Below, in pieces: positions 2,618 to 64,000 of a DNA stretch of 64,000 nucleotides. The stretch comes from Heterodontus francisci (lineage: Eukaryota): positions 146,462,365 to 146,526,364 of the forward strand of contig NC_090372.1 in the NCBI RefSeq assembly GCF_036365525.1. The letters run 5' to 3'. A program made the position numbers and the translations under genes. How positions within the stretch are numbered: position 1 is the first letter of the stretch; each line of letters starts with the position of its first letter. The notes beneath the pieces are model-generated. The model saw only the letters and a list, made by a program, of their open reading frames with translations. It made no database searches and was not told the origin of the DNA.

Positions 2618-3127
2618 TCTAAAAACCATCATTGTGTTAAGTTGAATAATATATCTTGCCTGTGATTGTCAGCATATGGGAGTTCTTTTGTGAATGTGCA
2701 AATCCCAATACATCACACAAGTGCTACAAGTGCAAATTATCTACTATATAGTGACTGTCTTTAGGATGAGTGTAAGGACAGTTGGAACTCACCATCATGG
2801 GTTGGTTACTCTGCTTAGCCTACAGTCCAAGTTTCAATTTCATGGAAATACTATGTACACATTGCTGAACTGATACTTTCCATTCTTGTACACATGAACT
2901 ATCAATTTGGTACTTTCACACTTGTGTGAATGGAATATTTTGGATTTTTACAATTGTGAAGTAACAATTTTTTGAGTGAATTATATAGATGTATCTATTC
3001 CATGTCCATTATTCCCAGTGTTCTGGCTCTTTCTAGCTTTTTTTAGTGAATTAACCCTAGGGATTGACTACTTGAATGTCACTGAGCACTGGGCTGTCCC
3101 AGGCACTACATCCATCAGATGCTTAGA

Positions 3128-3504
3128 GGGAGGCAGTGGCATCGTGGTATTGTCACTGGACTAGTGACCCAGAGACCCAGGGTTTTGCTCTGGGGACATG
3201 GATTTGAATCCCACCACAACAGATGGTGAAATTTGAATTTAATTAATAAATCTGGAATTAAAAAGCTAGTCTAATGATGACCATGAAACCATTGTTGTAA
3301 AAATCCATCTCATTGACCAATGTCCTTTAAGAAAGAAAATCTGTCATCCTTACCTGGTCAGGCCTACATGTGACTCCAGACCCACAGCAATGTGGTTGAC
3401 TCTTAAAATGGCCTAGCAAGCCACTTAGTTCAAGGGCAATTAGGAATGGGCAATAAATGCTGGTCTAGCCAGAGACGCCTACATCCCACAAACAAATAAA
3501 AAAA
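3128..3504 (+). mobile_element. tRNA-headed SINE made of the 5' ~300 nt plus 3' ~75 nt of the LINE at 27427/47088
   Basis: A-box-like TGGCATCGTGG and B-box-like GATTTGAATCC. Colinear with LINE 27427-27747, then jumps at ~3430 to the LINE 3' end (30641 onward) and an A-rich tail. Confidence 0.9.
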
Positions 3505-5705
3505 TGTTTAATATCACGTTCCTCAAATACCAGCAGGAACCACTTCCAGAGCTGACCAACTCTCAAGAATAAAAATAATAAAATCTAACAAATCTTCACC
3601 AAACATTGTGTTCACCCTCCATAAAGTAATTAGATGCTTTAGGAACGATTACTACCACATTGTTTAGCTTTTAGGACAAAATGCCAAGACCATATGCATA
3701 CTTTTTATTCCTGATACAGTCCTCAAACTGAATACTGCAGTAGTCCATTAATTTCTGTAAAATTTCACTGGATTTATGACATTGCACCAAAGGTAGAACT
3801 GACCCAGTTAACGTGCATCTGATGTAAGATCTGTTTGTGCTTCCTAAACCCTGGGGTTGCATTGATTTCAAATCATAATGGCTTGAACTGGATGTGATCC
3901 TCCCTCCGGGCTTACAGTGAAGACTGGCCTGAATCAGTTCTTGTACTGAGTGACACTAAACTGAATTAAATTACCTGAACAACGCAAGTGTGCTGATTTT
4001 TAATTAATGGTTCCTGGACACAGGAGATTCCTATCAGCTGTTTACATTAATGGGTACGAATCTTCAGTACCAAGACAAAACTGAGAGGAAGAGATGAGGA
4101 TTTTACCCAAATGCAATCGGAGTAAATAATTCCCCATCATTTACACTGAACCAGTAGCTGTGATTGTGCTGCAGATTCACAGGAAATGTAAATGTACAGC
4201 ACTTATACATGAATGGCATGAAAATAGCACAGTAAACTGCTGAAAGCCAACTCATGTGAAAATACTGCAACCAATAGACTGTAGCAGATGATAATCACAA
4301 TCAGTAATATCTGTGTCCACAGGTACAGGAATAAACTCCATGGGGCCAAAAAAATTTGTTCTTGACATATTACCCTATTACCCTGAAGGGATGGCACAAG
4401 GACAAGTGACCATTTGTTTACAGTCATTCGGGGTTAAATAGCAACAGTACCTGAACTCTTCTCAGTTATTATCCCTGCATGGATGAACAGCCAGGAACAT
4501 TTATCAGAACTGTTCAAATAACTATAATCTAGCTGTGCCTTCCCAATATTGTCAAATATTGTTATGCTCTTTCTCTTTTAAGTAAATTGATAAGTAACTT
4601 GCATACCTCATAACTGATCAAAGTTAAAGCCACCAAATTGATGCATTAGTTTAATTATAAGTCACTATAACCTTATTAAACATTGTTTATGAGTAACATG
4701 AGCCTGTATATGTTGCTACACTGGAATGAATCAAGGAGGTAAGGTTTTCAACAGCCCATTTCTCATCCGAAAAACAGACCAGCAGCAGAAGAAAATTGAA
4801 TGGGCACCTTGGACACTCCATTGGTGCACAAGGCCTGTCTAATTCAATTTTCAAGCTGGCTTTTAAATGGTTGTTCAGCGCTCCAACCCAAAACAGGCAG
4901 AAGGCCATTTATAGGACCCAATTGTAATTTTCACATACAATTGGCCAGAATGTGCGTCATGCTTACTAAGCCCAGTTATATCAGACATTGAGTGAAATAT
5001 GCAATGGTCCTTAAAGGGACCACTGGAGGCTGCTCAGGAAAAGACATGGTTTTGCTTTCTTTAGACTTCTGTGCGGCCAGAAGGAGCATTCATGCTCCTT
5101 TCATGCTCCACCTAGCCTCAAATGTTTGGTCCACTGCCAAAAATACAAAGTAGTTACCTAAAGAAGAGGGACTGTTTGGCCTGGATAACGACATGGTTAT
5201 ATAGACATCCAGGTAAAGCTGTGCCATTAGATTATATTTGAAGGGCTGTGTTACCTTCATGCTTTAGCTCAACTTCCATAAGCAATCTCCAAATATACTA
5301 ATTCAGGATTCAGGAAGACATTCTTCCGCTAGCTGGTTTGATGGGAATTCCAGAGCAGCTTTGGCTGACACCTGTTCAGTTCACTTGGTGTGCCTATATC
5401 ATTACAGCATCTTGAGAAATCTCTGCACAAGGACACAACATTTATACAGCCAGTATTTTTAATCTTCTGAAACTTCTTAAAAAAAGGATTCATTCTGAAA
5501 ACATGGTGGCAGCAGCAGCATATGAAAGCATCACTGTAACCCTATTAACACTACATCCTGGGTAAGCAAAACAGACGTAAAAACAAACATCTCGAATTCA
5601 GTAAGGACTTTAGGACTGATTCTTGAAGAAGGTAGAGCTGAGTGCAGCCATGAGCCCTGCCAGTGACATTTTTTGTAAGTTTAATAAATTTGAGACATTG
5701 CTTAA

Positions 5706-15699: not shown

Positions 15700-15875
15700 A
15701 ACCTCACTGGGTCACATTTCTAGAACTCCCTCCCTAACAGCACTGTGGGTGTGCCGACACCACATGGACTGCAGAGGTTCAAGAAGGTGGCTCACCACCA
15801 CCTTCTCAATTTGGGATGGGCAATAAATGCTGGCCTGGCCAGCAATGCTCACATCCCAAGAAGGAATTTTAAAAA
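15700..15875 (+). mobile_element. 5'-truncated 3' end of the tRNA-headed LINE family
   Basis: Matches 30540-30716 (AACAGCACTGTGGGTGT...CACCACCACCTTCTCAA...GCAATAAATGCTGGCC). Confidence 0.85.
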
Positions 15876-15926
15876 TTCACTCCTGACAGTGTGTGCCCTT
15901 TGATGGTCATATTTGGTGGCACACAA

Positions 15927-26355: not shown

Positions 26356-27426
26356 CCTCCCCCTTATCGATTCCCTTAATACTACCTTGCTCTCTTGCCT
26401 TGTCCTCTTTCTTTAATTTACCACAGCTTCCCTCATTCAATCCCTTGCCCCACTATTTAGTTTAAAGCCCTCTGTGCTGCCCCAGTTATATGTGCTGCCC
26501 CAGAATACTGGTCCCAGCACGGTTCAGGGGAAGACCGCCCCAATGGTACAGCTCCCACTTTCCCCAGTACTGGTGCCGGCACCCCATGAATCAACACCCT
26601 GTTTTCCTACACCAGTCTTTGAGCCACACATTTAACTCTCTAATCTTATTTACTGTACTCCAATTTGCTCATGGTTGAGGTAATAATCCAGAGATTAAAG
26701 GTAATAATCCAGAGATTATTACCTTTGAGAATCTGCTTTTTAATTTAGCCCCTATCTGCTCATACTCTCTAAGTAGAACCTCTTTCCTAGTCCTACCTAT
26801 TTCATTGGTACCTAACGGACCACGACAACTGGATCCTCCCCCTCCCACTGTAGGTTCCTCTCCAGCCCAGAGCAGATAGCCTGAACCCTAGCACCAGGCA
26901 GGCAACACAGCCTTCTGGACTCTCGCTCTCAGCTGAAGAGAACGGTGTCTATCCCCCGACTATACTGCCCCTACTACAACTACATTCCTATGTACTCCCC
27001 CACTTGAATGGGTTTTATGTACCACGGTGCCATGGTCAGTTTGCTCATTCACCCTGCAGCCCTCTCATCCATACAAGATGCAAGAACCTCGAACTTGTTG
27101 GACAATTGAAAGGGCTGATGCTTCCCCACTTCTACCTTCTTGATCCTCTAATCTGCCTCACTTGCAGTCACACCCTCCTGTCCCTGACCATGGTCCAAAT
27201 CAGATGACTCTATCCTTAGTGATGTGAGCACCTCTGGAACAAAGTGTCCAGGTAACGTTCACCCTCCCTGACAGGTCACCGTTAATTATTTTGATCACTG
27301 GGATGATAAAACAAACCTAAAGTACCCATTTCCATACATTTGATTTTGAATTTTAAGGGATTGAAAGAAAGAATAGTGACAGAGGAATTTCATACAAGTG
27401 TGCTAAGCATTTGTACAATAACATTA

Positions 27427-30400
27427 GGGAAGGCAGTGGCGTAGTGGTATTATTACTGGACTAATAACCCAGAGACCCAGGGTATTGATCTGGAGACATG
27501 GATTCAAATCCCACCACAGCAGAAGGTGGAATTTGAATTTAATTAATAAATCTGGAATTAAAAGCTAGTCTAATGATGGCCATGAAACCACTGTCGATTG
27601 TTGTAAAAACCCATCTGGTTCACTAATGTCCTTCAGGGAAGGAAATCTGTTGTCCTTACCTGGTCTGGCCTACATGTGATTTCAGACCCACAGCAATGTG
27701 GTTAACTCTTACGTGCCCTCTGAAACGGCCTAGCATGCCACTCAGTTGTACCTAACCGCTACAAAGTCAATAAAAAGGAATGAAACCGGGTGGACCTTCC
27801 GGCATCGACCTCGGCACCAGAAATGACAATGGCAAACTCAGCCCTGTCGACCCTGCAAAGTCCTCCTTGCGAACATCTGGGGACTTGTGCCAAAGTTGGG
27901 AGAGCTGTCCCACAGACCAGTCAAGCAACAGCCTGACATAGTCATACTCACGTCATACCTTACGTACAATGTCCCAGACACTGCAATCACTATCCTTGGG
28001 TATGGCCTGTCCCACCGGCAGGACAGACCCAGCAGAGGTGGCGGGACAGTGGTCTACAGTAGGGAGGGAGTTACCCTGGGAGTCCTCAACATCAACTCCG
28101 GACCCCATGAAGTCTCATGGCATCAGGTCAAACATGGGCAAGGTAACATCCTACTGGTTACCACCTACCGCCCTCCCTCAGCTGATGACTCAGTACTCCT
28201 CCATGTTGAACACCACTTGGAGGAAGCACTGAGGGTGGCAAGGGCACAAGATGTACTCTGGGTGGGGGACTTCAATGCCCATCACCAAGAGTGGCTCGGT
28301 AGCACCACTACTGACCGAGCTGGCCAAGTCCAAAAGGACATAGTTGCTAGACTGGGTATGCGGCAGGTGGCGAGGGAACCAACATGAGGGTAAAACATAC
28401 TTGACCTTGTCCACACCAATCTGCCTGCCGCAGATGAGTCTGTCCACGACTGTATTGGTAGGAGTGACCACCGCACAGTCTATGTGGAGACGAAGTCCCG
28501 CCTTCACATTGAGGATACCGTCCATCGTGATTGTGAGGCACTATCACCTTGCTAAATGGGATAGATTTCAAACAAATCTAGCAATGCAAAACTGGGCATC
28601 CATGAGGTGCTGTGGGCCATCAGCAGCAGCAGAATTGTACTCAACCACAATCTGTAACGTCATGGCCCGGCATATCCCCCACTCTACCATTACCATCAAG
28701 CCAGGAGACCAACTCTGGTTCAATGAAGAGTGCAGGAGGGCATGCCAGGAGCAGCACCAGGCATACCTCAAAATGAGGTGTCAGCCTGGTGAAGCTACAA
28801 CCCAGGACTACTTGCCTGCCAAACTGCATAAGCAGCATGCAATAGACTGAGCTAAGCGATCCCATAACTAACGGATCAGATCTAAGCTCTGCAGTCCTGC
28901 CACATCCAGCCGTGAATGGTGGTGGACAGTTAAACAACTAACTGGAGGAGGTGGCTCCACAAATATCCCCATCCTCAATAATGGGGGAGCCCAGCACATC
29001 AGTGCGAAAGATAAGGCAGAAGCATTTGCAACAATCTTCGGCCAGAAGTACTGAGTTGATGACCCATCTCGGCCACCTCCTGAAGTCCCCAGCATTATAG
29101 ATGCCAGACGTCAGCCAGTTCGATTCACTCCGCGTGATATCAAGAAACGACTGAAGGCACTGGATTCTGCAAAGGCTATACTGACAATATTCCGGCAATA
29201 GTACTGAAGACCTGTGCTCCAGAACTTTCTGCGCCCCTAGCCAAGCTGTTCCAGTACAGCTACAACACTGGCATCTACCCGGCAATGTGGAAAATTGCCC
29301 ATGTATGTCCTGGACAGAAAAAGCAGGACAAGTCCAACCCGGCCAATTACTGCCCCATCAATCTACTCTCAATCATCAGCAAAGTGATGGAAGGTGTCAT
29401 CAACAGTGCCATCAAGCAGCACTTGCTTAGCAATAACCTGCTCAGTGACGCTCAGTTTGGGTTCCGCCAGAGCCACTCAGCACCTGACCTCATTACAGTC
29501 TTGGTTCAAACATGGATAAAAGAGCTGAATGCAAGAGGTGAGCAGAGAGTGACTACCCTTGACATCAAGGCAGCATTTGACCGAGTATGGCATCAAGGAG
29601 CCCTAGCAAAACTGGAGTCAATGGGAATCAGGGGGAAAACTCTCCGCTGGTTAGAGTCATGCCTAGTGCAAAGGAAGGTGGCTGTGGTTGTTGGAGGTCA
29701 ATCATCTGAGCTCCAGGACATCACTGCAGGAGTTCCTCAGGGTAGTGTCCGAGGCCCAACCATCTTCAGCTGCTTCATCATGACCTTCCTTCAATTATAA
29801 GGTCAGAAGTGGGGATGTTCGCTGATGATTGCACAATGTTCAGCACCATTGATGACTCCTCAAATACTGAAGCAGTCTGTGTAGAAATGCAGCAAGACCT
29901 GGACAATATCCAGGCTTGGGCTGATAAGTGGCAAGTGACATTTGCGCCACACAAGTGCCAGGCAATGACCATCTCCAACAAGAGAGAATCTAACCATGTC
30001 CCCTTGACATTCAATGGCATTACCATCGCTGAATCCCCCACTATCAACATCCTAGGGGCTACCATTGACGAGAAACTGAACTGGAGTAGCCATATAAATA
30101 CCATGGCTACAAGAGCAGGTCAGAGGCTAGGAATCCTGCGACGTGTAACTCACCTCCTGATTCCCCAAAGCCTGTCCACCATCTACAAGGCACAAGTCAG
30201 GAGTGTGATGGAATAGTCTCCATTTGCCTGGATGGGTGCAGCTCCAACAACAGTCAAGACGCTCGACACCATCCAGGACAAAGCAGCCCGCTTGATTGGC
30301 ACCCCATCCACAAACATTCACTGCCTCCACCAGCGGCGCACAGTGGCAGCAGTGTGTACCATCTACAAGATGCACTGCAGCAATGCACCAAGGCTCCTTA

Positions 30401-30716
30401 GACAGCACCTTCCAAACCCGCGACCTCTACCACCTCGAAGGACAAGAGCAGCAGATGCATGGGAACACCACCACCTGCAAGTTCCCCTCCAAGCCACACA
30501 CTATCCTGACCTGGAACTATATCGCCGTTCCTTCACTGTCGCTGGGTCAAAATCCTGGAACTCCCTTCCTAACAGCACTGTGGGTGTACCTACCTCACAT
30601 GGACTGCAGTGGTTCAAGAAGACAGCTCACCACCACCTTCTCAATGGCAATTAGGGATGGGCAATAAATGCTGGCATAGCCAGTGATACCCACAACCCAT
30701 GAATGAATTAAAAAAA
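27427..30716 (+). mobile_element. Full-length tRNA-headed, single-ORF (APE-RT) LINE of the CR1/Jockey group (not canonical CR1), copy 1, decayed
   Basis: A box TGGCGTAGTGG (27437-27447) and B box GATTCAAATCC (27501-27511). APE motifs NIWGL, DIVILT, YRPP, GDFNAH, SDH. RT motifs LDIKAAFDRVWH, GVPQGS, FADD. Stop at 30654, 3' hairpin and A tail. Confidence 0.92.
27437..27511 (+). promoter_or_regulatory. Internal RNA polymerase III type-2 promoter (A and B boxes) at the LINE 5' end
   Basis: Perfect match to TRGCNNARYGG and near match to GGTTCRAATCC; homologous boxes occur in copy 2 and in the SINE. Confidence 0.75.
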
Positions 30717-31321
30717 TGGCAAAAATCATTTCTAGAGCAGTATAAAACACAGGATTTTTTTGAATTTTGGAACTGGTGAGGAAAGGGTCTGCAATATTGC
30801 TGTCTTTATGCACCACATATGCAGTGTAATAATCCTACCCATTTAAATTGGGTATTTGTGGTTAACTGAGATCTCACATTTCAGAAACCAAAACAGAAAC
30901 AGAGTTAATTTGCTTTTGTTGGCAGACACTTCTCAGTTATGAAGAATAATTTGAGTGACAATGGAGCAGAAAGAGCAGGAATGTCAGTTGGCATTATATG
31001 CAGCCACCTATATGCTGCCCACCATTTCTATAGGTCTGTTCAGAACTGCCTGACAAACACTGACAGTCGTACATTATGGATCATCAGGAAGGCAATTACT
31101 GACTATGCCATCTGCTTCATGTGCTTCTACCATTGGCATGCCATGGTCAGTGCTTAACTGCATAGACAGTAATAGATATCTGTCCAACTACAACCCACAC
31201 GGGCTGATAGTAAATAAATTTGCAACATGCAGCTCGGTGGTGTTGCAAGGATTTGTTGTGTGAAGGTCCTTTAACTTTCATTTCCAAGTGCCAATTTCTG
31301 TTGTGCTCTGCTGCAGGATGG

Positions 31322-36460: not shown

Positions 36461-36470
36461 AGTCCTTATT

Positions 36471-36775
36471 TTTTTTTTATTTAGAGATATAGCACTGAAA
36501 CAGGCCCTTCGGCGCACCGAGTCTGTGCCGACCAAGAACCACCCATTTATACTAACCCTACAGTAATCCCATATTCCCGACCACCTACCTACACTCGGGG
36601 CAATTTACAATGGCCAATTTACCTATCACCTGCAAGTCTTTGGCGGTGGGTGGAAACCGGAGCACCCGGCGAAAACCCACGTGGTCACAGGTCACTTGCA
36701 AACTCCGCACAGGCAGTACCCAGAATTGAACCCGGGTCCCTGGAGCTGTGAGGCTGCAGTGCTAACCACTGCGCC
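36471..36775 (-). mobile_element. V-SINE (HE1-like)
   Basis: GGCGCAGTGGTTAGCAC head, GGGTGCTCCGGTTTCC core, CR1-like tail; CCTTATT duplicated at both ends. Confidence 0.9.
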
Positions 36776-38120: not shown

Positions 38121-38169
38121 CAGAACCCTACTGACAATCTGCCAGTGTGATGCTAGGTATATAGACCAT

Positions 38170-39208
38170 TCAGTACCAAGGCCATTCCAACCTCTATCAT
38201 CAAGCTGCAGTATGCTGACGATGCTTGTGTCTGCGCACACTCAGAGGCTGAACTTCAAACCCTCGTTGAGGCATTTACGGATGCGTATAAAAGAGTGGTC
38301 CTGAAGCTAAACATCCGGAAGACAAAGGTCCTCTACCAGCCTGCTTCCACAGCGCAACACTGCCCCCCGACTAGCAAGATCCACCGCCAACCACTGGACA
38401 ATGTTGATCACTTCCCATACCTTGGGAGCCTCCTCTCAGCATGGGCAGACATAAACAATGAAACTCAATGTTGCCTCCAGTGTGCCAGTGCAGCCTTCGG
38501 TCCTCTGAGGAAAAGAGTGTTTGATGACAAAGACGTCAAACCTGGCACCAAACTCCTGGTCTACAGGTCACAGTGTTACCTGCCCTCCTGTATGTGTCAG
38601 GAACACGTACAGCAGACATCTCAAAGCCCTGGAGATATCATCAGCGGTGCCTCTGCAAGATCCTGTAAATTCAGCGGCAGGACAAGGGCTTCAATATCAG
38701 TGTCCTCTCTCAGGCCAACATCCCCAGTATCGAGACACTGGTCATGGCTAGTCAGCTACAGTGGGTGGGCCACATGGTCCACATGCCTGACAAAGACTGC
38801 CAAACAAACTTTCTGCTCCGAGATCCATTATGGCAAGAGGCTATCAGGAGGGCAGAGGAAACGCTACAAGGATGTCCTTAAAGCCTTCCTGAAAAATGTG
38901 GCATCTCCACCAATTTGTGGGAATCTCTTGCTCGAGATCACACAAAATGGAGAAGAAGCATCCGTGATGTTGCCAGCCAGTTCGAACAACATTGACATGC
39001 CCAGGCAGCAACCAAGTGCAAACAGCAGAAGATAGCATTCGGAATTTCGAGCATCCCATTCACTCGCCTCACCAAACACCACCTACCCCACCTGTGGCAG
39101 AGTATGTGGATCCAAAATTGGACTATTCAGTCACAGAAGGAACCACAACCCTGGAGTGGAAGAAAGTCATCCTCATTCCCGACGAACTGCCTAAGAAGAA
39201 GAAGACGA
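38170..39208 (+). mobile_element. RTE-clade LINE, 5'-truncated
   Basis: LQYADDAC, LKLNIRKTKVLYQP, FPYLGS, GGQRKRYKD; (AAG)n tail at ~39195. Confidence 0.88.
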
Positions 39209-41529: not shown

Positions 41530-44180
41530 AGAATGAAATTAGTGAGCAGTTAGAAAGCATGGGTTAATCAAGAACAGATTCATTTGAACATTTTTGAAGA
41601 AATTACTGAATGTGGTGGGATATTGTATAAAGTAGCAGGCAATTAATAAGATGGCACAAAAAGACCTGTTATGACAATTAAGGCACAGAGTATTAAAAAG
41701 AACTTAATCACATAGATCGAATAAGGCCTGTGGCCAGAAAGCAAAGCGTAGGAGTCAAACGATATTTTGCAGATTAGCGGGATGTGGGTTGTGGTGTGTC
41801 CAGGGATCTGTATTAGGATATCTTTTGTTTTCCAGTTATATAAATGATTTGGACATAGGCAGAAGAGGAATAATAATGAAGTTTGTTGATGATAAAAAAT
41901 TAGAGTAACAACAAACTGATGATGAACACACGTGATTTCCAGAGGAGGCAGACAGGTTAGTGGAATGGGTAGATAGGTGACAGTTGTGTTCCAATGCATA
42001 GAAATATGGAGTACATTTTAGGAAAAAGAACAATGAAAGGCAATAAAAACAGAAAATGCTGGAAATACTCAGCAGATGCATAAGGAAATAGTGAAAGAAA
42101 ATATAGTCTAAATTGTTAGGTTTGTACAGAGCACAGCTACAGGGAGATGTGCAGGTGCAGATATATAAGGGGTAACTTTCCAAATATAAATTGATAGTAG
42201 GGAACCTATCGACCAACAATGTATATCAACAAGTGGCTGACAGCAGGGAACCCACCAACCAGCAGAGCAGCATGTATGTTCTACACTGCCAGGGCATACT
42301 CTTCCCAATATATCTCTCAAGATGAAGTTCAGGTAGAAAACACCATTTAAAAGACAAATAGGATTTTAACACCTAAGGGCATGGAATATAAAGCCAAGGA
42401 AATGGCATTGCATTTGTACAAGACATTTGTTAGGCCACAGCAGAAGTATTGAGTGCAGTTGTGGGCACTTTATTATCGGTAGAACATTGGATCTATGGAG
42501 AAATTACAGTTAAGATTCATTCGAACGACAGCAGGAGTGACAGGTCAAAGTTCTGAAGAACAGCTCAAAAATTGATTTTTTTTTTAAATTACTGGAACAG
42601 AGATAATTAAGAGGAGCAATCTAATGGAGGTTTTTTACAAATTATTAGAAGTTTTGTCATGATAAATAGTGAAAGACTAGCAGAGACCCACAAAACATTT
42701 GCGGTCAAATTAGTATACTTTACCAATTCCGACATCTCATCCACCTCTCCCATGCCATCCCCATCCCATGCCATTCCATCCTTCCCATGCCATCTGTCCT
42801 TTCAATGCCATTCCTCTCATGCCACTCCTCCCTCCCATGTCATCCCAATCCCATGCCATTCCATCCTTCCCATGGCATCCCCCTGATGCCATCTCCTCCA
42901 ATGCTATCCCCATCCCATGCCATCCCTCCTGTGCCATCCCCTCAATTCCATATCATTCCCATCCCATGCCATTCCATCCTTCCCATGCCATCTCACTGAT
43001 GCCATCTCCTCCACTGCCATCCCTCCAATACCATTCTCTCAATTCCATGCCATCCCCATTTCAGGTCATCCTATCCTTCCCATGTCATTCCTCTCATGCC
43101 ACCCCATTCCATCCATCTCTCCCATGCCAACCCCATCCCACTCGTGCCAGCCCCATCTCTCCCATCATCACCTCAGTCTCTCTTTATTTTATATTATATT
43201 TTACCCCAGTCTTTATCTCATATTGGTCATATTTTACCTCAGTCTCTCTCTATTTTCTCTTTAAATTCTGTAATGTCAAACCTGTTTTATTCCAATCTGC
43301 CTTCAAATCTTTCCAGTACCAATCACCATAGTCTCCTCCTCACGCGCCAGGCACAGCCCCCAAAAATCTGTCTTCTCCATTCACCAGGTGCCTTGTTTGA
43401 ATCAATCAAAAACTATCACCCAATGCACACTGCCCTTTAATGTTACAGTATCTAATCAACCAACTGTCAGCCCACAGGTACAAAATTTCATTGGAACTTA
43501 CAAAACACTCCGCAAACCAAGATCTTTAAACCCAACAGAAGTTGTCCTATTTTTAAAATAGGTTTCCCTCTGCGATCTCTATTACACTGATTAGATTTTA
43601 TCTCAGTCTCTTTCTATTTTATATTATATTTTACCTCAGTCTTGCTGGATTTTCTATTATATTGGCTATATTTAACCTCAGTCTCTCTCCCTCTATTTGA
43701 TATTACCTTGATTAAATTTTACCTCAGTCTCTCTCTCAGTTTTATATTATAATCTCATGAGTGCTTACTAAACTCATCTCTCACAGTAAGTGTGAAAACC
43801 TTGAACATATCCACTCTATACCTGATCTGTCATTTGGAGCCAAATCTAAACACCATAAAAAGTTTTCATTTGCACAACTTACCTCCCTTGCAGTGGAAAA
43901 TGGGGCCAATAAACTTTCTGCTATGTACTGAGTGCTTGCTCCGCCACCAATTCAACCGACCGACCAATCAGAAAAGTGCAGACAGAGAGAAGCTGCGTAT
44001 TATTGTAATAGATTTTTGACAAATCAGTAAAAATGGTGTAGAATCCAGATTATCACTAGAAGAATAGAAATAGGAAGTTAGAAGATTTCATTTTACACAG
44101 CATTATTAGAACATGGAATGATTTATCACAAATAGCTATTGAAGCAAAGACTAGAACATTGTTTAAAAACAATTATACAA
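41530..44180 (+). mobile_element. Very old CR1 remnant split by Helitron copy 2
   Basis: Degenerate RT and C-terminal sequence; ...GATAAATAGTGAAAGA|TTTTTG... rejoins across the Helitron and continues to FHFTQ...WNDL. Confidence 0.65.
42677..44012 (-). mobile_element. Non-autonomous Helitron, copy 2
   Basis: Minus strand A|TCTATTACAATAATACGCAG ... hairpin (42688-42704), 11 nt, CTAG|T; no TSD. Internal CCATGCC and CCTCAGTCTCTC minisatellites. Confidence 0.85.
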
Positions 44181-47075: not shown

Positions 47076-47087
47076 TATAAGTGGGGA

Positions 47088-50000
47088 GGGGAGGTGGTGG
47101 CATAGTGGTATTGTCACTGGACTAGTAACCCAGAGACCCAGGGTATTGCTCTGGGGTCATGGGTTTGAATACCAGCACAGCAGAAGGTGGAATTTGAATT
47201 CAATTAATAAATCTGGAATTAAAAGCTAGTCTAATGATGGCCATGAAACCATTGTCGATTGTTGTAAAAACCCATCTGGTTCACTAATGTCCTTCAGGGA
47301 AGGAAATCTGCTCTCCAAACCTGGACTGGTCTTCATGTGACTCCAGACCCACAGCAATGTGGTTGACTCTTACATGCCCTGTGAAATGGCCTAGCAAGCC
47401 ACCGCTATGAAGTCAATAAGAAAAAATGAAACTGGTCGGAACACCTGGCATCAACCGAGGCACCGGAAACGACAACGGCAAACCCAGCCCTGTCGACCCT
47501 GCAAAGTCTTCCTTACTAACATCTGGGGGCTTGTGCCAAAGTTTAGTTTAGTTTAGTTTAGTTTAGAGATACAGCACTGAAACAGGCCCTTCGGCCCACC
47601 AAGTCTGTGCCGACCATCAACCACCCATGTATACTAACCCTACACTAATTCCATATTCCTACCACATCCCCACCTGTTCCTATATTTCCCTACCACCTAC
47701 CTATACTAGGGGCAATTGCTAATGGCCAATTTACCTATCAACCTGCAAGTCTTTGGCATGCGGGAGGAAACCGGAGCACCCGGAGGAAACCCACGCAGAC
47801 ACAGGGAGAACTTGCAAACTCCACACAGGCAGTACCCAGAATTGAACCCGGGTCGCTGGAGCTGTGAGGCTGCGGTGCTGACCACTGCGCCACTGTGCCG
47901 CCCCGCAAAAGTTGGGAGAGCTGTCCCACAGACGAGTCAAGCAACAGACTGGCATAGTCATACTCACGGAATCATACCTTACAGATAATGTCCCAGAAAC
48001 TGCCATCACCATCCCCGGGTATGTCCTGTCCCACTGGCAGGACAGACCCAGCAGAGGTGGTGGCACAGGGGTATACAGTAGGGAGGGAGTTGCCCTGGGA
48101 GTCCTCAACATCAACTCCGGACCCCATGAAATCTCATGGCATCAGGTCAAACATGGGCAAGGTAACCTCCTACTGATTACCACCTACCGCCCTCCCTCAG
48201 CTGATGACTCAGTACTCCTCCATCTTGAACACCACTGGAGGAAGCACTGAGAGCGGCAAGGGTGCAGAATGGGAGACTTCAAAGTCCATCATCAGGAGTG
48301 GCTCGGTAGCACCACTACTGACCGAGCTGGCTGAGTCTTAAAGACCTAGTTGCTAGACTGGGTATGTTCCAGGTGGTGGGGGAACCAACAAGAGGGAAAA
48401 ATAGACTTGACCTCGTCCTCACCAATCTGCCTGCCGCAGATGCATTTGTCCATGACAGTATTGGTCAGAGTGACCACCGCACAGTCCTTGTGGAGACGAA
48501 GTCCCGCCTTCACATTGAAGATACCCTCCACTGTGTTGTATGGCACTACCACCATGCTAAATGGGATAGATTTCGAACAGATCTAGCAATGCAAAACTGG
48601 GCATCCATGAGGCACTGTGGGCCATCAGCAGCAGTAGAATTATACTCAACCACAATCTGTAACGACATGGCCCGGCATATCCCCTACTCTACCATTACCA
48701 TCAAGCCAGGAGACCAACCCTGGTTCAATGAAGAGTGCAGGAGGGCATGCCAGGAGCAGCACCAGGCATAACTCAAAATGAGGTGTCAACCTGGTGAAGC
48801 TACAACACAGGATTACAAACTGCGTAAGCAGCATGCAATAGACAGAGCTAAGCGATCCCCTACCCAACGGATCAGACCTAAGCTCTGCAGTCCTGCCACA
48901 TCCAGACATGATTGGTGGTGGACAATTAAACAACTAACTGGAGGAGGTGGCTCCACAAATATCCCCATCCTCAATAATGGGGGAGCCCAGCACATCAGTG
49001 CGAAAGATAAGGCTGAAGTATTTGCAGTAATCTTCAGCCAGAAGTGCCGAGTTGATGATCCATCTCGGCCTCCTCCTGAAGTCCCCAGCATCACAGATGC
49101 CAGACTTCAGCCAATTCGATTCACTCCATGTGATATCAAGAAACAAATGAAGGCACTGGATACTGCAAAGGCTATGGGCCCTAACAATATTCCGTTAGTA
49201 GTACTGAAGACCTGTGCTCCAGAACTTGCCACGCCCCTAGCCAAGCTGTTCCAGTACAGCTACAACACTGGCATCTACCCTGCAATGTGGAAAATTGCCC
49301 AGGTATGTCCTGTACACACAAAGCAGGACAAGTCCAACTCGGCCAATTACTGCCCCATCAGACTACTCTCAATCATCAGTAAAGTATGGAAGGTGTCATC
49401 AACAGTGCCATCAAGCGGCACTTGCTTAGCAATAACCTGCTCAGTGATGCTCAGTTTGGTTTCCACCAGGGCCGCTCAGCTCCTGACCACATTACAGCCT
49501 TGGTTCAAACATGGACAAAAGAGCTGAACTCAAGAGGTGATGTGAGAATGACTGCCCTTGACATCAAGGCAGCATTTGACCGAGTATGGCATCAAGGAGC
49601 CCTAGCAAAACTGAGGTCAATGGGAAGCAGGGGGAAAACCCTCCACTGGCTGGAGTCATACCTAGTGCAAAGGAAGATGGTTGTCGTTGTAGGAGATCAA
49701 TCATCTCAGCTCCAGGACATCGCTGCAGGAGTTCCTCAGGGTAGTGCCCTAGGCCCAACCATCTTCAGCTGCTTCATCAATGACCTTCCTTCAATCATAA
49801 GGTCAGAAGTGGGGATGTTTGCTGATGATTGTACAATGTTCAGCACCATTTGTGACTCCTCAAATACTGAAGCAGTCCGTGTAGAAATGCAGCAAGACCT
49901 GGACAATATCCAGGCTTGGGCTGATAAGTGGCAAGTGACATTTGCGCCACACAAGTGCCAGGCAATGACCATCTCCAACAAGAGAGAATCTAACCATCTC

Positions 50001-50712
50001 CCCTTGACAGTCAATGGAATTACCATCACTGAATCCCCCACTATCAACATCCTAGGGGCTACCATTGACCAGAAACTGAACTGGAGTAGCCATATAAATA
50101 CCGTGGCTACAAGATCAGGTCAGAGGCTAGGAATCCTGCGGCGGGTAACTCACCTCCTGACTCCCCAAACCTGTCCACCATCTACAAGGCACAAGCCAGG
50201 AGTGTGATGGAATACTCTCCTCTTGCCTGGATGGGTGCAGCTCCAACAACACTCAAGAAGCTCGACACCATCCAGGACAAAGCAGCCCGCTTGATTGGCA
50301 CATCTACAAACATTCACTGCCTCCACCACCGGCGCACAGTGGCAGCAGTGTGTACCATCTACAAGATGCACTGCAGCAACGCACCAAGGCTCCTTCGACA
50401 GCACCTTCCAAACCCGCGACCTCTACCAACTAGAAGGACAAGTGCATCAAATGCATGGGAACACCACCACCTGCAAGATACCCTCCAAATCACACACCAT
50501 CCTGACTTGGAACTATATCGCTGTTCCTTCACTGTCGCTGGGTCAAAATCCTGGAACTCCCTTCCTAACAGCACTGTGAGTGTACCTACCCCACATGGAC
50601 TGCAGCGGTTCAAGAAGGTAGCTCACCACCACCTTCTCAATGGCAATTAGGGATGGGCAATAAATGCTGGCCTGGCCAGCGATGCCCACATCCCATGTAT
50701 GAATAAAAAAAA
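47088..50712 (+). mobile_element. Full-length tRNA-headed APE-RT LINE, copy 2, interrupted by a V-SINE
   Basis: Colinear with 27427-30716 from the first nucleotides to the A tail; ORF pieces 47912-50650. Confidence 0.92.
47541..47904 (-). mobile_element. Full-length V-SINE (HE1-like) with (TAAAC)n tail
   Basis: GGGGCGGCACAGTGGCGCAGTGG head; AAAGTT duplicated at both junctions. Confidence 0.92.
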
Positions 50713-52330: not shown

Positions 52331-52884
52331 AATCAACTTCCACATGGACATTGGCAAAGCATAGCTCTACCTTCTCGTTTGACCCTCTATTACCTCTGTG
52401 CTGTCCAATATTCAGTTTTGAATGAAACACGTTTTCTCTCAGTTACATATGGCAAAGCTCAAAGCCTTGGGCCTCCACCAGAAACTTTGTTGCCTTGCCA
52501 CTGATTCCACATCTTCCCATATTAAACTCAAGAGCTAAAATCTCCCCAAGCCTCATTTCCATATTCAGGCTACAACTCCCACCTGATCCTGGCTGCCAGG
52601 CCTCAGCTTCCCTCAACCTACTACCTGAAATCTCTTCAAGGGCACCCCACCGTTGAGGCACTGTCTTCCTGGAGCTGCAGCCTCAGCAATGGTCACCTCT
52701 GATTAGGCTAGCAGTTTGTGGGGGTGGGTCACCATCCTTAATTGGATGGCGATCCCAGTGGCAGCCTGTTAATTGGGCATCGCCGGCAATATGCCATCCC
52801 GGGTCCTGCCACCTGCCAAAGTGGGGTCACCTTCCACTTTCAGCCACGCGGCACGACTTGCCGATAATCAGCAAAATTCAGCCT

Positions 52885-53215
52885 CATGTATCCTCCATCA
52901 CCGAGAGCGTCTGCTTCCACCTTCGTAACATTGCCTGCTTCTGCCCCTCCCTCAGCCCATCTGCTGCTGAAACCCTCATTCGTGCTTTCTTTACCTCCAG
53001 GCTTGACTATTCCAGTTCTCTCCTGGCTGGTTCCAATTCTTCATGCTCTTTAAACTTCAGCTCATCCAAAACTCTGCTGCACATTCCCTGTTCCACATCA
53101 AGACCAACTCATCTATTGCTCCTGTTCCCGGCCTTTTTTTGTTCAATTACACCTCTGCAAAGAGCCTTGAGACATTTTCTCAAGTTAAAAGTGTTATATA
53201 AATTCATCTTATTGT
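52885..53215 (+). mobile_element. Old L2 fragment
   Basis: FHLRNIA...AETLIRAFFTSRLDYSSSLLAG. Confidence 0.75.
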
Positions 53216-53489
53216 TACAAAGAGCTTTCTGTCATTCTTGGAAGGAGCCATGATGAAATATACAATGAACGGAAGGAATTATGAAATAAAAGTCAGCTAT
53301 TGAACTGAACCACAAGCAATGGGCACATTTGTACCACAGACAAAATGGAGTAGAGATCAAGTGACCCCTCCTATACAATCAATAAACAAGCTTGTCTGCA
53401 AAGATGAAACTCATTAACGGCATCTGAATTAATTCTGGGAAGAACCCATTGAAATTTAAATGAGTCCATTACATTTTGATGACTCCTAT

Positions 53490-54702
53490 TGTTATGACCA
53501 AGGCTGGAGGAATGCACTATCTTTCTCTAGTTGCACTACTCCACAGGTCACAGCATATATTTAAATGTTTACCAAGTTACCGATACGGGCAAATATAGAC
53601 TCTATTTTTATTTCAGAATAAAATCCATCAAGCAGGTTTCTTTAATAAACAACAATATCACCAATATATTATTAAACTAGGCTTATTCGGTAAAGATGCA
53701 AAACATTAACACACAGATTGAAATCTGAAAGTTCCCTTCTAAATTAGCCCTACACATACAAGCACACAGCAGTTAAAGAAAAAATAAAGAAGTTTTCTCT
53801 GCAGAGATCTCTTTACAAAAAAAACCTTAGCCAGATACTTGTTAACTCTTGAAGGGAAAGAGAGGATATGGAATGATATCAGTTGTCCCTTTATTCTGGC
53901 ATCCCAAATACGTGTAGACAGCTGTCACTGGGATTTTTTGGAGCAGTTCTCTTTCGGTGATGTCGAGGATTAGTCTGGCAGGCTTTCCAGGGGAAATGCT
54001 GCATCGGGGGTTTCAGCTATCACTCTGGATTCTCAGGCTTTCAGAGAAGTGAAGAAAGGATGAGCTTGGTGTTTCTCTCAGCAGGCTGCAATCCTCAACT
54101 CACGCAAAACAACATCTAAAACGAAACCAACTCCTGACCACCATAAATCTTGACATGTCACTTCTCTGTAAATAACTCCCCTAGTCACCAAGACTCTTGC
54201 TGTTTACTTAGCTGAAGACATGTGACTTCCAGTAAGTGTGTTTCTAAACCAAGTTCCAAGTCCTTTTTTTTATTTTTAGAGATACAGCACTGAAACAGGC
54301 CCTTCAGCCCACCGAGTCTGTGCCGACCAACAACCACCCATTTATATTAACCCTACAGTAATCCCATATTCCCTACCACCTACCTACACTAGGGGCAATT
54401 TACAACGACCAATTTACCTATCACCTGCAAGTCTTTGGCTGTGGGAGGAAACCGGAGCACCCTGCGAAAACCCACGCGGTCACAGGGAGAACTTGCAAAC
54501 TCTGCACAGGCAGTACCCAGAATCGAACCCGGGTCCCTGGAGCTGTGAGGCTGCGGTGCTAACCACTGCGCCACTGTGCCACCCCTTGCGCCACTGTCCA
54601 GCATCTATGTAATCTGTTCTGTCCTCCAAAAGGAATCCATTTCCACAATTTTAAAACACAAGTCCTCACAAAATATTAAGAAATGGAAGTACTTTCATAA
54701 CA
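53490..54702. mobile_element. Solo LTR containing a V-SINE
   Basis: TGTTATGA...TCATAACA termini and a perfect 4-bp TSD CTAT (53486-53489, 54703-54706). Confidence 0.85.
54263..54585 (-). mobile_element. V-SINE (HE1-like)
   Basis: Same head, core and tail as 36471-36775 and 47541-47904. Confidence 0.92.
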
Positions 54703-59227: not shown

Positions 59228-62200
59228 AAAGAACAAAGAACAAAGAACAAAGATAATTACAGCACAGGAACAGGCCCTTCGGCCCTCCAAGCCTGCGCCG
59301 ATCCAGATCCTCTCTCTAAACATGTCGCCTATTTTCTAAGCTTCTGTATCTCTTTTCTTCCTGCCCATTCATGTATCTGTCTAGATACATCTTAAAAGAC
59401 TCCATCGTGCCCGCATCTACCACCTCCGCTGGCAATGCATTCCAGGTGCCCACCACCCTCTGCGTAAAGAACTTTCCACGCATATCCCCCCTAAACTTTT
59501 CCCCTTTCACTTTGAACTCGTGTCCTCTAGTAATTGAAACCCCCACTCTGGGAAAAAGCTTCTTGCTATCCACCCTGTCTATACCTCTCATGATTTTGTA
59601 CACCTCAATCAGGTCCCCCCTCAACCTCCGTCTTTCTAATGAAAATAATCCTAATCTACTCAACCTCTCTTCATAGCTAGCGCCCTCCATACCAGGCAAC
59701 ATCCTGGTGAACCTCCTCTGCACCCTTTCCAAAGCATCCACATCCTTTTGATAATGTGGCGACCAGAACTGTACGCAGTATTCCAAATGTGGCCGAACCA
59801 AAGTCCTATACAACTGTAACATGACCTGCCAACTCTTGTACTCAATGCCCCGTCCGATGAAGGAAAGCATGCCGTATGCCTTCTTGACCACTCTATTTAC
59901 CTGCGTTGCCACCTTCAGGGAACAGTGGACCTGAACACCCAAATCTCTCTGGACATCAATTTTCCCCAGGACTTTTCCATTTATTGTACAGTTCACTCTT
60001 GAATTGGATCTTCCAAAATGCATCACCTCGCATTTGCCCGGATTGAACTCCATCTGCCATTTCTCTGCCCAACTCTCCAATCTATCTATATTCTGCTGTA
60101 TTCTCTGACAGTCCCCTTCACTATCTGCTACTCCACCAATCTTAGTGTCGTCTGCAAATTTGCTAATCAGTCCACCTATACTTTCCTCCAAATCATTAAT
60201 GTATATCACAAACAACAGTGGTCCCAGCACGGATCCCTGTGGAACACCACTGGTCACACGTCTCCATTTTGAGAAACTCCCTTCTACTGCTACTCTCTGT
60301 CTCCTGTTGCCCAGCCAGTTCTTTATCCATCTAGCTAGTACACCTTGGACCCCAAGCGCCTTCACTTTCTCCATCAGTCTGCCATGGGGAACCTTATCAA
60401 ACGCCTTACTGAAGTCCATGTATATGACATCGACAGCCCTTCCGTCATCAATCAACTTTGTCACTTCCTCAAAGAATTCTATTAAGTTGGTAAGACATGA
60501 CCTTCCCTGCACAAAACCATGTTGCCTATCACTGATGAGCCCATTTTCTTCCAAATGGGAATAGATCCTATCCCTCAGTATCTTCTCCAGCAGCTTCCCT
60601 ACCACTGACGTCAGGCTCACCGGTCTATAATTACCTGGATTATCCCTGCTACCCTTCTTAAACAAGGGGACAACATTAGCAATTCTCCAGTCCTCCGGGA
60701 CCTCACCCGTGTTTAAGGATGCTGCAAAGATATCTGTTAAGGCCCCAGCTATTTCCTCTCTCGCTTCCCTCAGTAACCTGGGATAGATCCCATCCGGACC
60801 TGGGGACTTGTCCACCTTAATGCCCTTTAGAATACCCAACACTTCCTCCCTCCTTATGCCGACTTGACCTAGAGTAATCAAACATCTGTTCCTAACCTCA
60901 ACATCCGTCATGTCCCTCTCCTCGGTGAATACCGATGCAAAGTACTCGTTTAGAATCTCACCCATTTTCTCTGAGTCCAAGCATAACATTCCTCCTTTGT
61001 CCTTTAGTGGGCCAATCCTTTCTCTGGTTACCCTCTTTCTCCTTATATATGAATAAAAGGCTTTGGGACTTTCCTTAACCCTGTTTGCTAAAGATATTTC
61101 ATGACCCCTTTTAGCCCTCTTAATTCCTCGTTTCAGATTGGTCCTACATTCCCGATATTCTTTCAAAGCTTCGTCTTTCATCAGCCGCCTAGACCTTATG
61201 TATGCTTCCTTTTTCCTCTTAGCAAGTCTCACAATTTCACCTGTCATCCATGGTTCCCTAATCTTGCCATTTCTATCCCTCATTTTCACAGGAACATGTC
61301 TCTCCTGCACGCTAATCAACCTCTCTTTAAAAGCCTCCCACATATCACATGTGGATTTACCTTCAAACAGCTGCTCCCAATCTACATTTCCCAGCTCCTG
61401 CCGAATTTTGGTATAGTTGGCCTTCCCCCAATTTAGCACTCTTCCTTTAGGACCACTCTCGTCTTTGTCCATGAGTATTTTAAAGCTTACGGAATTGTGA
61501 TCACTATTCCCAAAGTAGTCCCCTACTGAAACTTCAACAACCTGGCCGGGCTCATTCCCCAACACCAGGTCCAGTATGGCCCCTTCCCGAGTTGGACTAT
61601 TTACATACTGCTCTAGAAAACCCTCCTGGATGCTCCTTACAAATTCTGCTCCATCTGGACCTCTAACATTAAGCGAATCCCAGTCAATGTTGGGAAAATT
61701 AAAATCTCCTATCACCACCACCCTGTTGCTCCTACATCTTTCCATAATCTGTTTACATATTTGTACCTCTATCTCACGCTCGCTGTTGGGAGGCCTGTAG
61801 TACAGCCCCAACATTGTTACCGCACCCTTCCTATTTCTGAGTTCTGTCCATATTGCCTCACTGCTCGAGTCCTCCATAGTGCCCTCCTTCAGCACAGCTG
61901 TGATATCCTCTTTGACCAGTAATGCAACTCCTCCACCCCTTTTACCTCCCTCTCTATCCCGCCTGAAGCATCGATATCCTGGGATATTTAGTTGCCAATC
62001 ATGCCCTTCCCTCAACCAAGTCTCAGTAATAGCAATAACATCATACTCCCAGGTACTAATCCAAGCCCTAAGTTCATCTGCCTTACCAACTACACTTCTT
62101 GCATTAAAACAAATGCACCTCAGACCACCAGTCCCTTTATATTCATCATCTGCTCCCTGCCTGCTCTTCCCCTTAGTCACACTGACTTCATTATCTAGTT

Positions 62201-62296
62201 TCTTACAGGCTTTTGTTACTACCTCCTCACTGTCAACTGACCTCAATTGGTTCCCATCCCCCTGCCACATTAGTTTAAACCCTCCCCAACAGCGTT
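59228..62296 (-). mobile_element. Young CR1 LINE, 5'-truncated within the end of ORF1
   Basis: (TTCTTTG)n tail at 59228-59253 and an uninterrupted ORF2. Confidence 0.95.
59316..62270 (-). CDS. CR1 ORF2, APE endonuclease plus reverse transcriptase, 984 aa, intact
   Basis: Starts MWQGDG at a TAATG stop/start overlap with the ORF1 remnant; motifs NARS, ITETWL, GDFN, SDH, DFSKAFD and FADD are present. Confidence 0.92.
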   Translation of the reverse strand: MWQGDGNQLRSVDSEEVVTKACKKLDNEVSVTKGKSRQGADDEYKGTGGLRCICFNARSVVGKADELRAWISTWEYDVIAITETWLREGHDWQLNIPGYRCFRRDREGGKRGGGVALLVKEDITAVLKEGTMEDSSSEAIWTELRNRKGAVTMLGLYYRPPNSEREIEVQICKQIMERCRSNRVVVIGDFNFPNIDWDSLNVRGPDGAEFVRSIQEGFLEQYVNSPTREGAILDLVLGNEPGQVVEVSVGDYFGNSDHNSVSFKILMDKDESGPKGRVLNWGKANYTKIRQELGNVDWEQLFEGKSTCDMWEAFKERLISVQERHVPVKMRDRNGKIREPWMTGEIVRLAKRKKEAYIRSRRLMKDEALKEYRECRTNLKRGIKRAKRGHEISLANRVKESPKAFYSYIRRKRVTRERIGPLKDKGGMLCLDSEKMGEILNEYFASVFTEERDMTDVEVRNRCLITLGQVGIRREEVLGILKGIKVDKSPGPDGIYPRLLREAREEIAGALTDIFAASLNTGEVPEDWRIANVVPLFKKGSRDNPGNYRPVSLTSVVGKLLEKILRDRIYSHLEENGLISDRQHGFVQGRSCLTNLIEFFEEVTKLIDDGRAVDVIYMDFSKAFDKVPHGRLMEKVKALGVQGVLARWIKNWLGNRRQRVAVEGSFSKWRRVTSGVPQGSVLGPLLFVIYINDLEESIGGLISKFADDTKIGGVADSEGDCQRIQQNIDRLESWAEKWQMEFNPGKCEVMHFGRSNSRVNCTINGKVLGKIDVQRDLGVQVHCSLKVATQVNRVVKKAYGMLSFIGRGIEYKSWQVMLQLYRTLVRPHLEYCVQFWSPHYQKDVDALERVQRRFTRMLPGMEGASYEERLSRLGLFSLERRRLRGDLIEVYKIMRGIDRVDSKKLFPRVGVSITRGHEFKVKGEKFRGDMRGKFFTQRVVGTWNALPAEVVDAGTMESFKMYLDRYMNGQEEKRYRSLENRRHV

Positions 62297-64000
62297 GGGA
62301 ACAGACTTGGCAGCACAAAACTTGTTATGAATGATGTTATTGAGATAAAGGTAAGGACAAGTTTGTTAAGTTTTCAGATAAACCATAGTCATGAACTCAG
62401 GCAGTAATTAACAGTCTAACACAGATACTACCTGTATTAGAGATTGGACAGCAGAGTGCACGACTAGTTTCTTTTGCAGCTTTGGGGTCCTCAAGCTTTT
62501 TGGTCGCTCTCTCTCTCTTGTAATTTCTCTTGTTGTTCGAAGATTCTCTGCCGCACAGTAGCAAGGACAGGACTTCTTTTATCCTGGCAGCTTTCCAGTT
62601 AACCCTCCCCTCTCCCAATCAGTGATTATTCTTGTATTAAAGGATGTCTTTCTTAACCAACCAAGGATCATTTTGTGATGGTTGCTAACTTTTCAGATTT
62701 GCACAAGTAGTACCCCTTTGTGTTGACTACTTTATCTCAATGCTTTTACATTTCGAGGATGCCTTTCTCAGTACAAGAAAATCTACGCAGATGCTGTTTT
62801 CACTGTCTGCTCTCAATGTCTCACCCTTTTGCTGCAAGTAAGCATTTTAAAACTTGACATAATCTCCCAGAATCCCTCTGTCTTGACATCTTGTCCATAC
62901 TTTACTCTATCTCCTAAGCTTTACCACTTTACCATACTACAAAAAAGGGTTCTAATAAAGCTAAATGTTAGTTTCTGATACTTAGTTAGTTGTTAGTTTA
63001 TAATAGCTGGATTTTAACAATTAGTATGCTATTAGTACATGGTGATCACGATGCGTGATTATCCCATGCCCGATTGAAGTGATGCAGGAGGCAGGCAAAC
63101 TTCATGCTGCCTGCTCATTTCCATGATAATGGCATGTAGCCCAGCACTGAACACTGAATATCCTGCTGAGGGGCTACCAGGGGTTGGCAATGTGTCTGTA
63201 CACGGACACTAGTATCCATGGTAAAAATGTTGAGGTCTGTGACTGGTAATTTCAAGGATGCAAAATTTCCCATTGCCTTCTTTCCAACCAGTTGGATGGG
63301 TTCCGTTCTAACAAGATCCCACCAAAAACCACGAACTGGTCCTAAGTTTGGAAGTGCTGTCTCTGCTCTAAGCACCTGTCAGCTGTGAAACTGACAGCTG
63401 CGATTTTTTGAAAAAACTGACCAACCTCAAAGCAGCTCTACTGGAAGTTCCCACTCTCTGCAACTGTCAGAGAAAGGGGAGGGGGGCAGGAGAGACCACA
63501 CATGGGATGGATGACACACAGAGGGAGGGAGAGAGAGAGCGATCAAGATCACTCCTGACAGATGGAGATGTGTCTGGAATACTCCACATTGCTACAAGAA
63601 GTGTGCAGGCAAACATTGATTACTTATGCAAGCATAAAAAAGCCAGGTATCACACTAAATCACTGTCCAACATAGTGACCAGAGAATAAGTCAATAAATT
63701 AGTCTCCTCATTTAAAGCTTCTTCATAAAAATGCACCTTTTTTGTTGTTTTGATGAATAGTAAGATAAATTTTTTATGTCTTTATCTTTGTGAAATTGTC
63801 ACATCAGCCCCCTATGTTAAGACAAAAATTGTAATGTGGCCCCCACGCTAAAATGTTGGATATTCCTGCTTCAAGCCTTTAACCTTGTGTTTTAAAATAA
63901 CCTAGCAGCAAAAGTAATTACAAAAGTAATTTTCATTGTCATTGCATACTATTTTGCTTGCTAGCTAGCTAATACAATTGTGCTGCTCTCCATTGATGTT

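Follow-up and report, generated by a model that had tools for sequence, protein, structure and literature searches.

A tRNA-headed SINE of Heterodontus francisci, probably derived by internal deletion from a LINE that already carried the head

A short repeat in Heterodontus francisci raises the question of how a SINE can share both of its ends with a LINE. The repeat lies at positions 3128–3504 (+ strand) of the DNA analyzed here, a 64,000-nt stretch of contig NC_090372.1 referred to as the window; it measures 377 nt, which corresponds to 397 nt of LINE sequence if the small deletions within it are filled in. In the standard account, SINEs arise by the fusion of a small-RNA head to parts of a LINE, and LINEs are transcribed by RNA polymerase (Pol) II and SINEs by Pol III. 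The initial annotation of this DNA offered two origins for the element: internal deletion of the LINE or capture of a SINE head by the LINE. Our analysis favors the first for 3128–3504, which probably goes back to an internal deletion in a LINE with a tRNA-type promoter already in place, followed by amplification of the shortened form; a gain of the capture type is still required deeper in time.

The element consists of the LINE leader fused to the LINE tail. In a self-BLAST of the window, 3123–3430 matched 27424–27747 of a full-length LINE, copy A (83% identity with gaps, E = 3e-95), and 3128–3424 matched 47089–47402 of a second, copy B (84%, E = 4e-94). The rest matched the opposite end of the same two copies, with 3430–3506 aligned to 30641–30718 of copy A (82%, E = 9e-14) and 3430–3504 to 50637–50711 of copy B (84%, E = 6e-16). 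Self-BLAST and alignments agree with the annotated make-up, in which 3128–3430 is the LINE leader up to 27747 and is followed by the last codons and 3′ UTR from 30641. By alignment, the tail piece (3431–3504, +) holds the last three codons, the stop codon (30652–30654 in copy A) and the 3′ UTR, including AATAAA, a short hairpin and an A-rich end. Folding of heads and tails gave z scores of −0.03 to −1.47, none beyond −1.5, and the tail hairpin was not significant. The SINE leader lacks 7 nt and 11 nt of the LINE leader and has one extra A. A possible left target-site duplication at 3119–3125 (+) is weak (7 nt, one mismatch to 3504–3510), and a search at LINE copies A and B found none.

Alignments and a read-out of positions place the joint at 3430/3431 (+), where LINE 27747 meets 30641/30642 with 1 nt of microhomology and no filler: T3430 can be read as LINE 27747 or as LINE 30641. 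No base at the joint is specific to the SINE, which is made of LINE leader and LINE tail alone. No long microhomology able to drive a local deletion was seen there; an 8-nt repeat at 27747 and 30585 of copy A lies away from the tail point of the SINE and is absent from copy B. The cut had been annotated as lying just before the start of the ORF. It actually falls 14 nt inside a stop-free frame that opens at 27734, and whether the earlier wording holds hinges on the start codon used. That long frame opens after AUG-GCC-UAG, in frame with it, which the SINE retains at 3408–3416 (+, position read-out). This AUG, in good context and 14–23 nt before the joint, is the only conserved in-frame AUG; it reads AUG in the SINE and copy B and ACG in copy A. 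Two whale shark gene models have Q or E at the UAG, a change for which gene prediction would select.

The parent LINE is represented in the window by two full-length copies and a fragment. Copy A (27426–30716, +; 3291 nt) is decayed and comprises a tRNA-like head, a leader and one APE-RT frame, with no room for an ORF1. Its leader, common to the SINE, spans 27426–27747 (+; self-BLAST and pattern scan), with the A box at 27437–27447 and the B box at 27501–27511. The single broken ORF (27734–30654, +) encodes a basic leader peptide, an APE endonuclease (PF14529, PF03372) and a reverse transcriptase (RT), and the RT domain PF00078 was found in the matching part of copy B. Copy B (47085–50712, +), a second full-length head-bearing copy missed in the initial annotation, has the same head, differs from copy A by 7.3% in the body and is interrupted by another SINE. 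Over 834 codons, the differences between the two copies fall evenly on the codon positions (67/52/54), so both are dead copies in neutral decay from near-identical masters. A 5′-truncated 3′ fragment at 15704–15876 (+) has no head upstream.

An APE endonuclease followed by RT in one frame places the parent among APE-type non-LTR elements, and the APE domain excludes the R2 clade. Its RT has CR1-type matches and is not obviously RTE, Ingi, Vingi or R2. In a quick tree of 100 rows, built with SH-aLRT support only, without named clade references and without candidates covering fewer than 180 query residues, the parent grouped with marine invertebrate elements in a 99% clade that comprised 44 rows. 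The CR1 of the window and a CR1-type match from a bird fell outside it, which separates the parent from a strict CR1 clade. Among proteins, gene models of the whale shark matched closely, as did an apparently exonised piece in horn shark. The latter, the CWC25 homolog XP_067908591.1 (P0274), has a predicted N terminus composed of pieces of the parent LINE frame, by exonisation or as an artefact of the gene model. Next in similarity come single-frame elements from marine invertebrates (P0002, P0003, P0007 and L001, with Amphiura and Acanthosepion matches), whose best matches reach 41–47% RT identity; like the parent, they have a single APE-RT frame, of about 930–990 aa, on contigs of 3.3–3.8 kb. 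Beyond these, 80 metagenome loci held distant relatives only (41% or less), the ESM Atlas gave generic APE-RT clusters only, and a full-library search returned no further named relatives. Direct copies numbered zero in viral contigs and zero in prokaryote genomes, and self-BLAST found no DNA similarity between the parent LINE and the RTE-like piece of the window.

All three heads have the same order of A box, AGT anticodon-like arm, extra hairpin and B box, and the SINE, copy A and copy B start within a few bases of each other, 9–13 nt before the A box. In the SINE, a pattern scan with A and B box consensus sequences placed the A box of a type 2 Pol III promoter at 3137–3147 (+) and a decayed B box at 3201–3211 (+). 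Between them, 3156–3172 (+) resembles an anticodon arm, with AGT in the loop of the SINE and copy B and a private change at that site in copy A; by this triplet the head is Thr-like. The B box has TG in the SINE and copy B and CA in copy A, two products of one CpG, and several other SINE/LINE differences in head and tail are TG and CA pairs of the same kind. ARAGORN found no tRNA genes at default settings and, with a relaxed threshold, a cloverleaf at 27433–27521 in the head of copy A only; Rfam returned only a chance snoRNA match (E = 0.49). The short element has in common with SINE2 elements a 5′ head with A and B boxes, short non-coding sequence and a 3′ tail homologous to a partner LINE. 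Over 296 head columns, private changes number 18 in the SINE, 14 in copy A and 13 in copy B, a near star in which the three are about equidistant. The SINE tail is more diverged (9 private changes over 67 columns compared with 3 and 2 in the LINE copies), in part through CpG decay. Both of the two full-length LINE copies in the window have the head, which is a family trait of the parent LINE.

The initial annotation called the parent a Pol III LINE, a label that is supported by sequence statistics only, and we put transcription of the parent by Pol III from its own head at about an even chance. TTTT and TVTTT, given as the shortest Pol III terminators in the accessible text of PMC8466645, were taken as the motif set. 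Neither motif occurs anywhere in the 3291 nt of copy A, where base shuffling predicts 8.9 (P = 0.002) and dinucleotide shuffling 4.9 (P = 0.004), and the ORF of this copy contains none against 4.8 expected by synonymous-codon shuffling (P = 0.001). Counts were at background on the antisense strand of copy A (23 versus 23.8 expected) and in the intact CR1 of the window (20 versus 19.6), and the observed/expected ratio was 0.80–1.33 in all 36 metagenome relatives whose ORFs reach at least 500 aa (from the 80 loci). Depletion was weaker in copy B (2 versus 4.4 by dinucleotide shuffling, P = 0.16), which belongs to the same family as copy A and is not an independent test. For TTTT alone, P was 0.06 by synonymous and 0.08 by dinucleotide shuffling. 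Phe codons gave no sign of a bias related to terminators (6 TTT, 13 TTC, P = 0.8). T content is 0.21 in copy A and 0.22–0.36 in most relatives. Pol III transcription would explain the avoidance of T-run terminators on the sense strand; translation of the uncapped parent RNA would then have to use a non-standard start or read through the UAG of AUG-GCC-UAG.

The strongest alternative accepts the deletion and differs in the polymerase: the parent would be an ordinary Pol II LINE that keeps its head for another reason, such as RNA structure or a leader that holds a Pol II promoter, and Pol III would be used by the short form alone. We give this somewhat less than an even chance, and it is compatible with the deletion step of the preferred explanation. 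TT is depleted generally in the parent LINE and a C-based version of the terminator motif is also low in copy A (13 versus 21.8, P = 0.008), as a Pol II parent would allow, but the complete lack of terminators in copy A stands against background counts in its antisense strand, the CR1 and the 36 relatives. An AATAAA about 120 nt into the leader of both LINE copies would threaten a Pol II transcript. The available text of PMC10886601 gives the usual division, with LINEs transcribed by Pol II and SINEs by Pol III, and describes Pol II as the polymerase of non-LTR retrotransposons and the processivity of Pol III as poor. A Pol III parent would also require translation of an uncapped 3.3-kb RNA, but reporters under Pol III promoters can be translated if TTTT is taken out of them, according to the accessible part of PMC8223928, which cites Gunnery and Mathews (1995).

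Further copies of the short form were sought in contigs of four public runs from three organisms (A, B and D), aligned on copy A; runs X1 and X17 are one sample, possibly the source of the window. The joints considered are the best 15 of 16,714 by support, from a set in which some joints are uncounted and the letters between the two sides of a joint are not known. Five of these 15 link 27660–27760 to 30574–30649 (random-joint probability 0.0014). Among the best joints, 27711 to 30642 was present in 8 contigs of organism B and 10 of organism D, and 27711 to 30646 in 4 of organism B, 12 of organism D and 1 + 3 of organism A. The joint 27703 to 30649 was present in 4 and 3 contigs, and two more occurred in single contigs: 27760 to 30574 (depth 534) and 27660 to 30614. 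A separate table adds a head-tail joint of 27750 to 30622.

The joints to 30642 and 30646 end within 5 nt of the tail point of the SINE, a match on the tail side in contigs whose heads are not visible, and their leader side at 27711 is exactly where the 11-nt deletion of the SINE starts. These recurring joints are likely to represent the same short form as 3128–3504, although the exact joint 27747 to 30642 is absent among the best 15 of 16,714. The other head-tail joints suggest that several short forms arose independently; in two of them, leader bases past 27747 that are missing from the SINE are retained. An earlier question was whether the joint is fixed or unique to this locus: uniqueness is not borne out, with joints in three organisms, and recurrence extends as far as the tail-side match.

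Other features of the contigs concern the LINE as a whole. A variant at 27753, just inside LINE-only sequence, was carried by 119–126 contigs in each DNA run, with counting capped at 128, across three organisms. Contig depth, which is no copy number, was about the same in the head and the 5′ body and similar on both sides of 27747; such a profile would place most heads on LINEs but was set aside as evidence. In run X17, possibly RNA, no start site was visible. At about 27596, hundreds of contigs (988, 554, 790 and 60 in the four runs) join the leader with a diverged, apparently homologous upstream part, which apparently represents an older or sister family with the same body. Between 30544 and 30603, recurrent joints go back by 46–56 nt in organisms B and D (5–31 contigs each), not in organism A, and correspond to a variant with a tandem duplication close to the ORF end.

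Taken together, the deletion origin is favored because no SINE-only base is present at the joint, the heads are equidistant, several distinct joints occur and the body matches none of the printed Deu, Meta, UCON3 or CORE SINE domains. The parent would be a 3.3-kb LINE, abundant in cartilaginous fish, with a single APE-RT ORF and, as its 5′ end, a tRNA-derived type 2 promoter with A and B boxes. A template jump during reverse transcription, or DNA repair, would have taken out about 2.9 kb and spared the two cis signals, namely the internal promoter and the 3′ end recognized by the LINE protein. The product would function as a SINE at once, with transcription driven by the head it inherited and copying in trans by the enzyme of its parent. 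A single deletion from a head-bearing LINE is the simplest account of 3128–3504 and was likely followed by amplification; deletions of this type would have happened more than once in the family.

Earlier still, the LINE lineage would have gained its tRNA head from a tRNA gene or a SINE. This step is needed because L001, the nearest invertebrate relative with DNA sequence and the only member of its group to have one, has no tRNA head; unlike the parent LINE, it also has 20 T4 runs in its ORF. A profile of the head found no match in the 80 distant metagenome loci, L001 included (best E = 7.9). The 5′ region of L001 (1–500) contains two similar 40-nt stretches, at about 390–430 and 450–490. Whale shark gene models P0272, P0273 and P0277 each match both the leader (27623–27749) and the endonuclease. 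Because L001 is headless and the whale shark models span leader and endonuclease, we infer that the head was gained before the split of whale shark and the three sampled organisms.

The order of events could also be reversed, with a pre-existing tRNA SINE that bore the tail of this LINE, a LINE that took its head and body as a 5′ end by template switching, and the SINE of the window as a member of the donor family. We consider this unlikely. The head was gained at some time, given that L001, in the same 99% clade of the quick tree, and the 80 metagenome loci are without it, but a capture breakpoint could fall anywhere and would usually leave SINE-only bases, and none are present. After the joint, a CAATAAA 7-mer occurs in the same register in the SINE and copy A (P = 0.005 for the exact register, 0.09 with 10 nt of slack) and may have been left over from a SINE tail that was captured; against this, the preceding 20 nt agree no better than by chance, whereas the heads are near-identical. 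The contigs with a diverged part upstream of 27596 would fit a donor, in that other families have the same body; other short forms, on the opposite side, retain leader bases beyond 27747. The body also matches no printed conserved SINE domain, and with no sign of an old SINE domain there, the main argument for a pre-existing SINE is removed. That a full-length LINE inserted at 3128 later lost 2.9 kb and never amplified is very improbable: it would suit the single copy in the window, the weak target-site duplication and the absence of the exact joint among the best 15, but joints near the same tail point, to 30642 and 30646, recur in contigs of organisms B (8 + 4), D (10 + 12) and A, their leader side coincides with the start of the 11-nt deletion, and no long microhomology is available for a local deletion.

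Several known families were considered for the short element. SacSINE1, a DeuSINE and the first label given to it, has only the A and B boxes in common by eye over the printed nt 2–78 (PMC5786205 supplement, as far as printed). The Deu domain printed in the PMC7245038 supplement, in the part available, has no counterpart in the body by eye, and the 25-nt Deu core motif had no matches in the window at 3 mismatches. The MetaSINE and UCON3-SINE domains printed in the same part of that supplement were absent from the body, by eye only, as was the printed CORE-SINE domain. An 11-nt word in common with the printed UCON3 domain is in the wrong order and in the SINE copy only, and was taken as chance. 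Self-BLAST found no match between 3128–3504 and the other tRNA SINE family of the window, which we take to be V-type.

The SacSINE1 and LmeSINE1 DeuSINEs are comparable in being tRNA-headed with a LINE-derived tail, and SacSINE1 also comes from a cartilaginous fish (Luchetti 2017, PMC5499810, available text). SacSINE1 measures 463 bp in the accessible part of PMC2746220, compared with 377 here, and for the shark SINEs the available text of PMC5499810 reports only the tail as common to a LINE. The initial annotation held that SINEs usually share only the 3′ tail with their LINE, which overstates the case: the available text of Kojima (2018, PMC5786205) describes derivatives with both ends for RTE, Ingi, Vingi and R2, and hagfish examples of bipartite non-autonomous LINEs and SINEs appear in that of PMC7245038. 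Like 3128–3504, these bipartite LINEs keep the 5′ and 3′ ends of the parent through internal deletion and are mobilized in trans. In the account given by the accessible text of Kojima (2018), they differ in that the parent is taken as Pol II-driven and a small-RNA head is added later, in a second step, whereas here the parent is already headed and one deletion yields a complete SINE. What is unusual here is that the 5′ end in common is the tRNA promoter itself.

Similar to this parent is RTE-1_DAn with its relatives, LINEs with a tRNA-like sequence that matches many SINE2 elements (PMC5786205). It belongs to the RTE clade, the available part of PMC5786205 gives no position, promoter test or derived SINE for it, and no other paper in the literature searched names it. 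No paper describing a tRNA-headed shark LINE or a SINE deleted from it was found in the literature outside most subscription journals; Repbase or Dfam may already name the families, and turtle genomes may contain a similar body and tail. The element at 3128–3504 may be classed with the bipartite non-autonomous LINEs while behaving as a tRNA SINE, and its parent may be of a categorically unusual kind. A LINE that owns a tRNA head offers a one-step route to SINEs, and the two elements form a natural pair of parent and offspring whose head, body and tail can each be followed; for conserved SINE bodies, no LINE source had been found, according to the accessible text of Kojima (2018, PMC5786205). 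Should the parent prove to be transcribed by Pol III, it would provide a natural Pol III messenger several kilobases long, and a single element would allow direct tests of Pol III processivity, of cap-independent translation and of how Pol II silencing is escaped.

The window contains further elements. An unrelated tRNA-type SINE lies inside copy B (47544–47904, −) with a short target duplication, so the family to which it belongs was active after the insertion of copy B. Other members of this second tRNA-type SINE family occur at 36466–36775 and 54264–54585 (−), with pieces at 34279 and 59258; the family is presumably HE1/V-SINE-like. The CR1-type LINE that served as terminator control (59316–62324, −) has an uninterrupted 1002-aa APE-RT frame and is therefore probably a young insertion. 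Decayed pieces at 38157–39035 (+) and 52657–53253 (+) are, by their motifs, presumably RTE-like and L2-like. Related low-complexity C/T-rich repeats occupy 290–564 and 42673–43689, about 42 kb apart.
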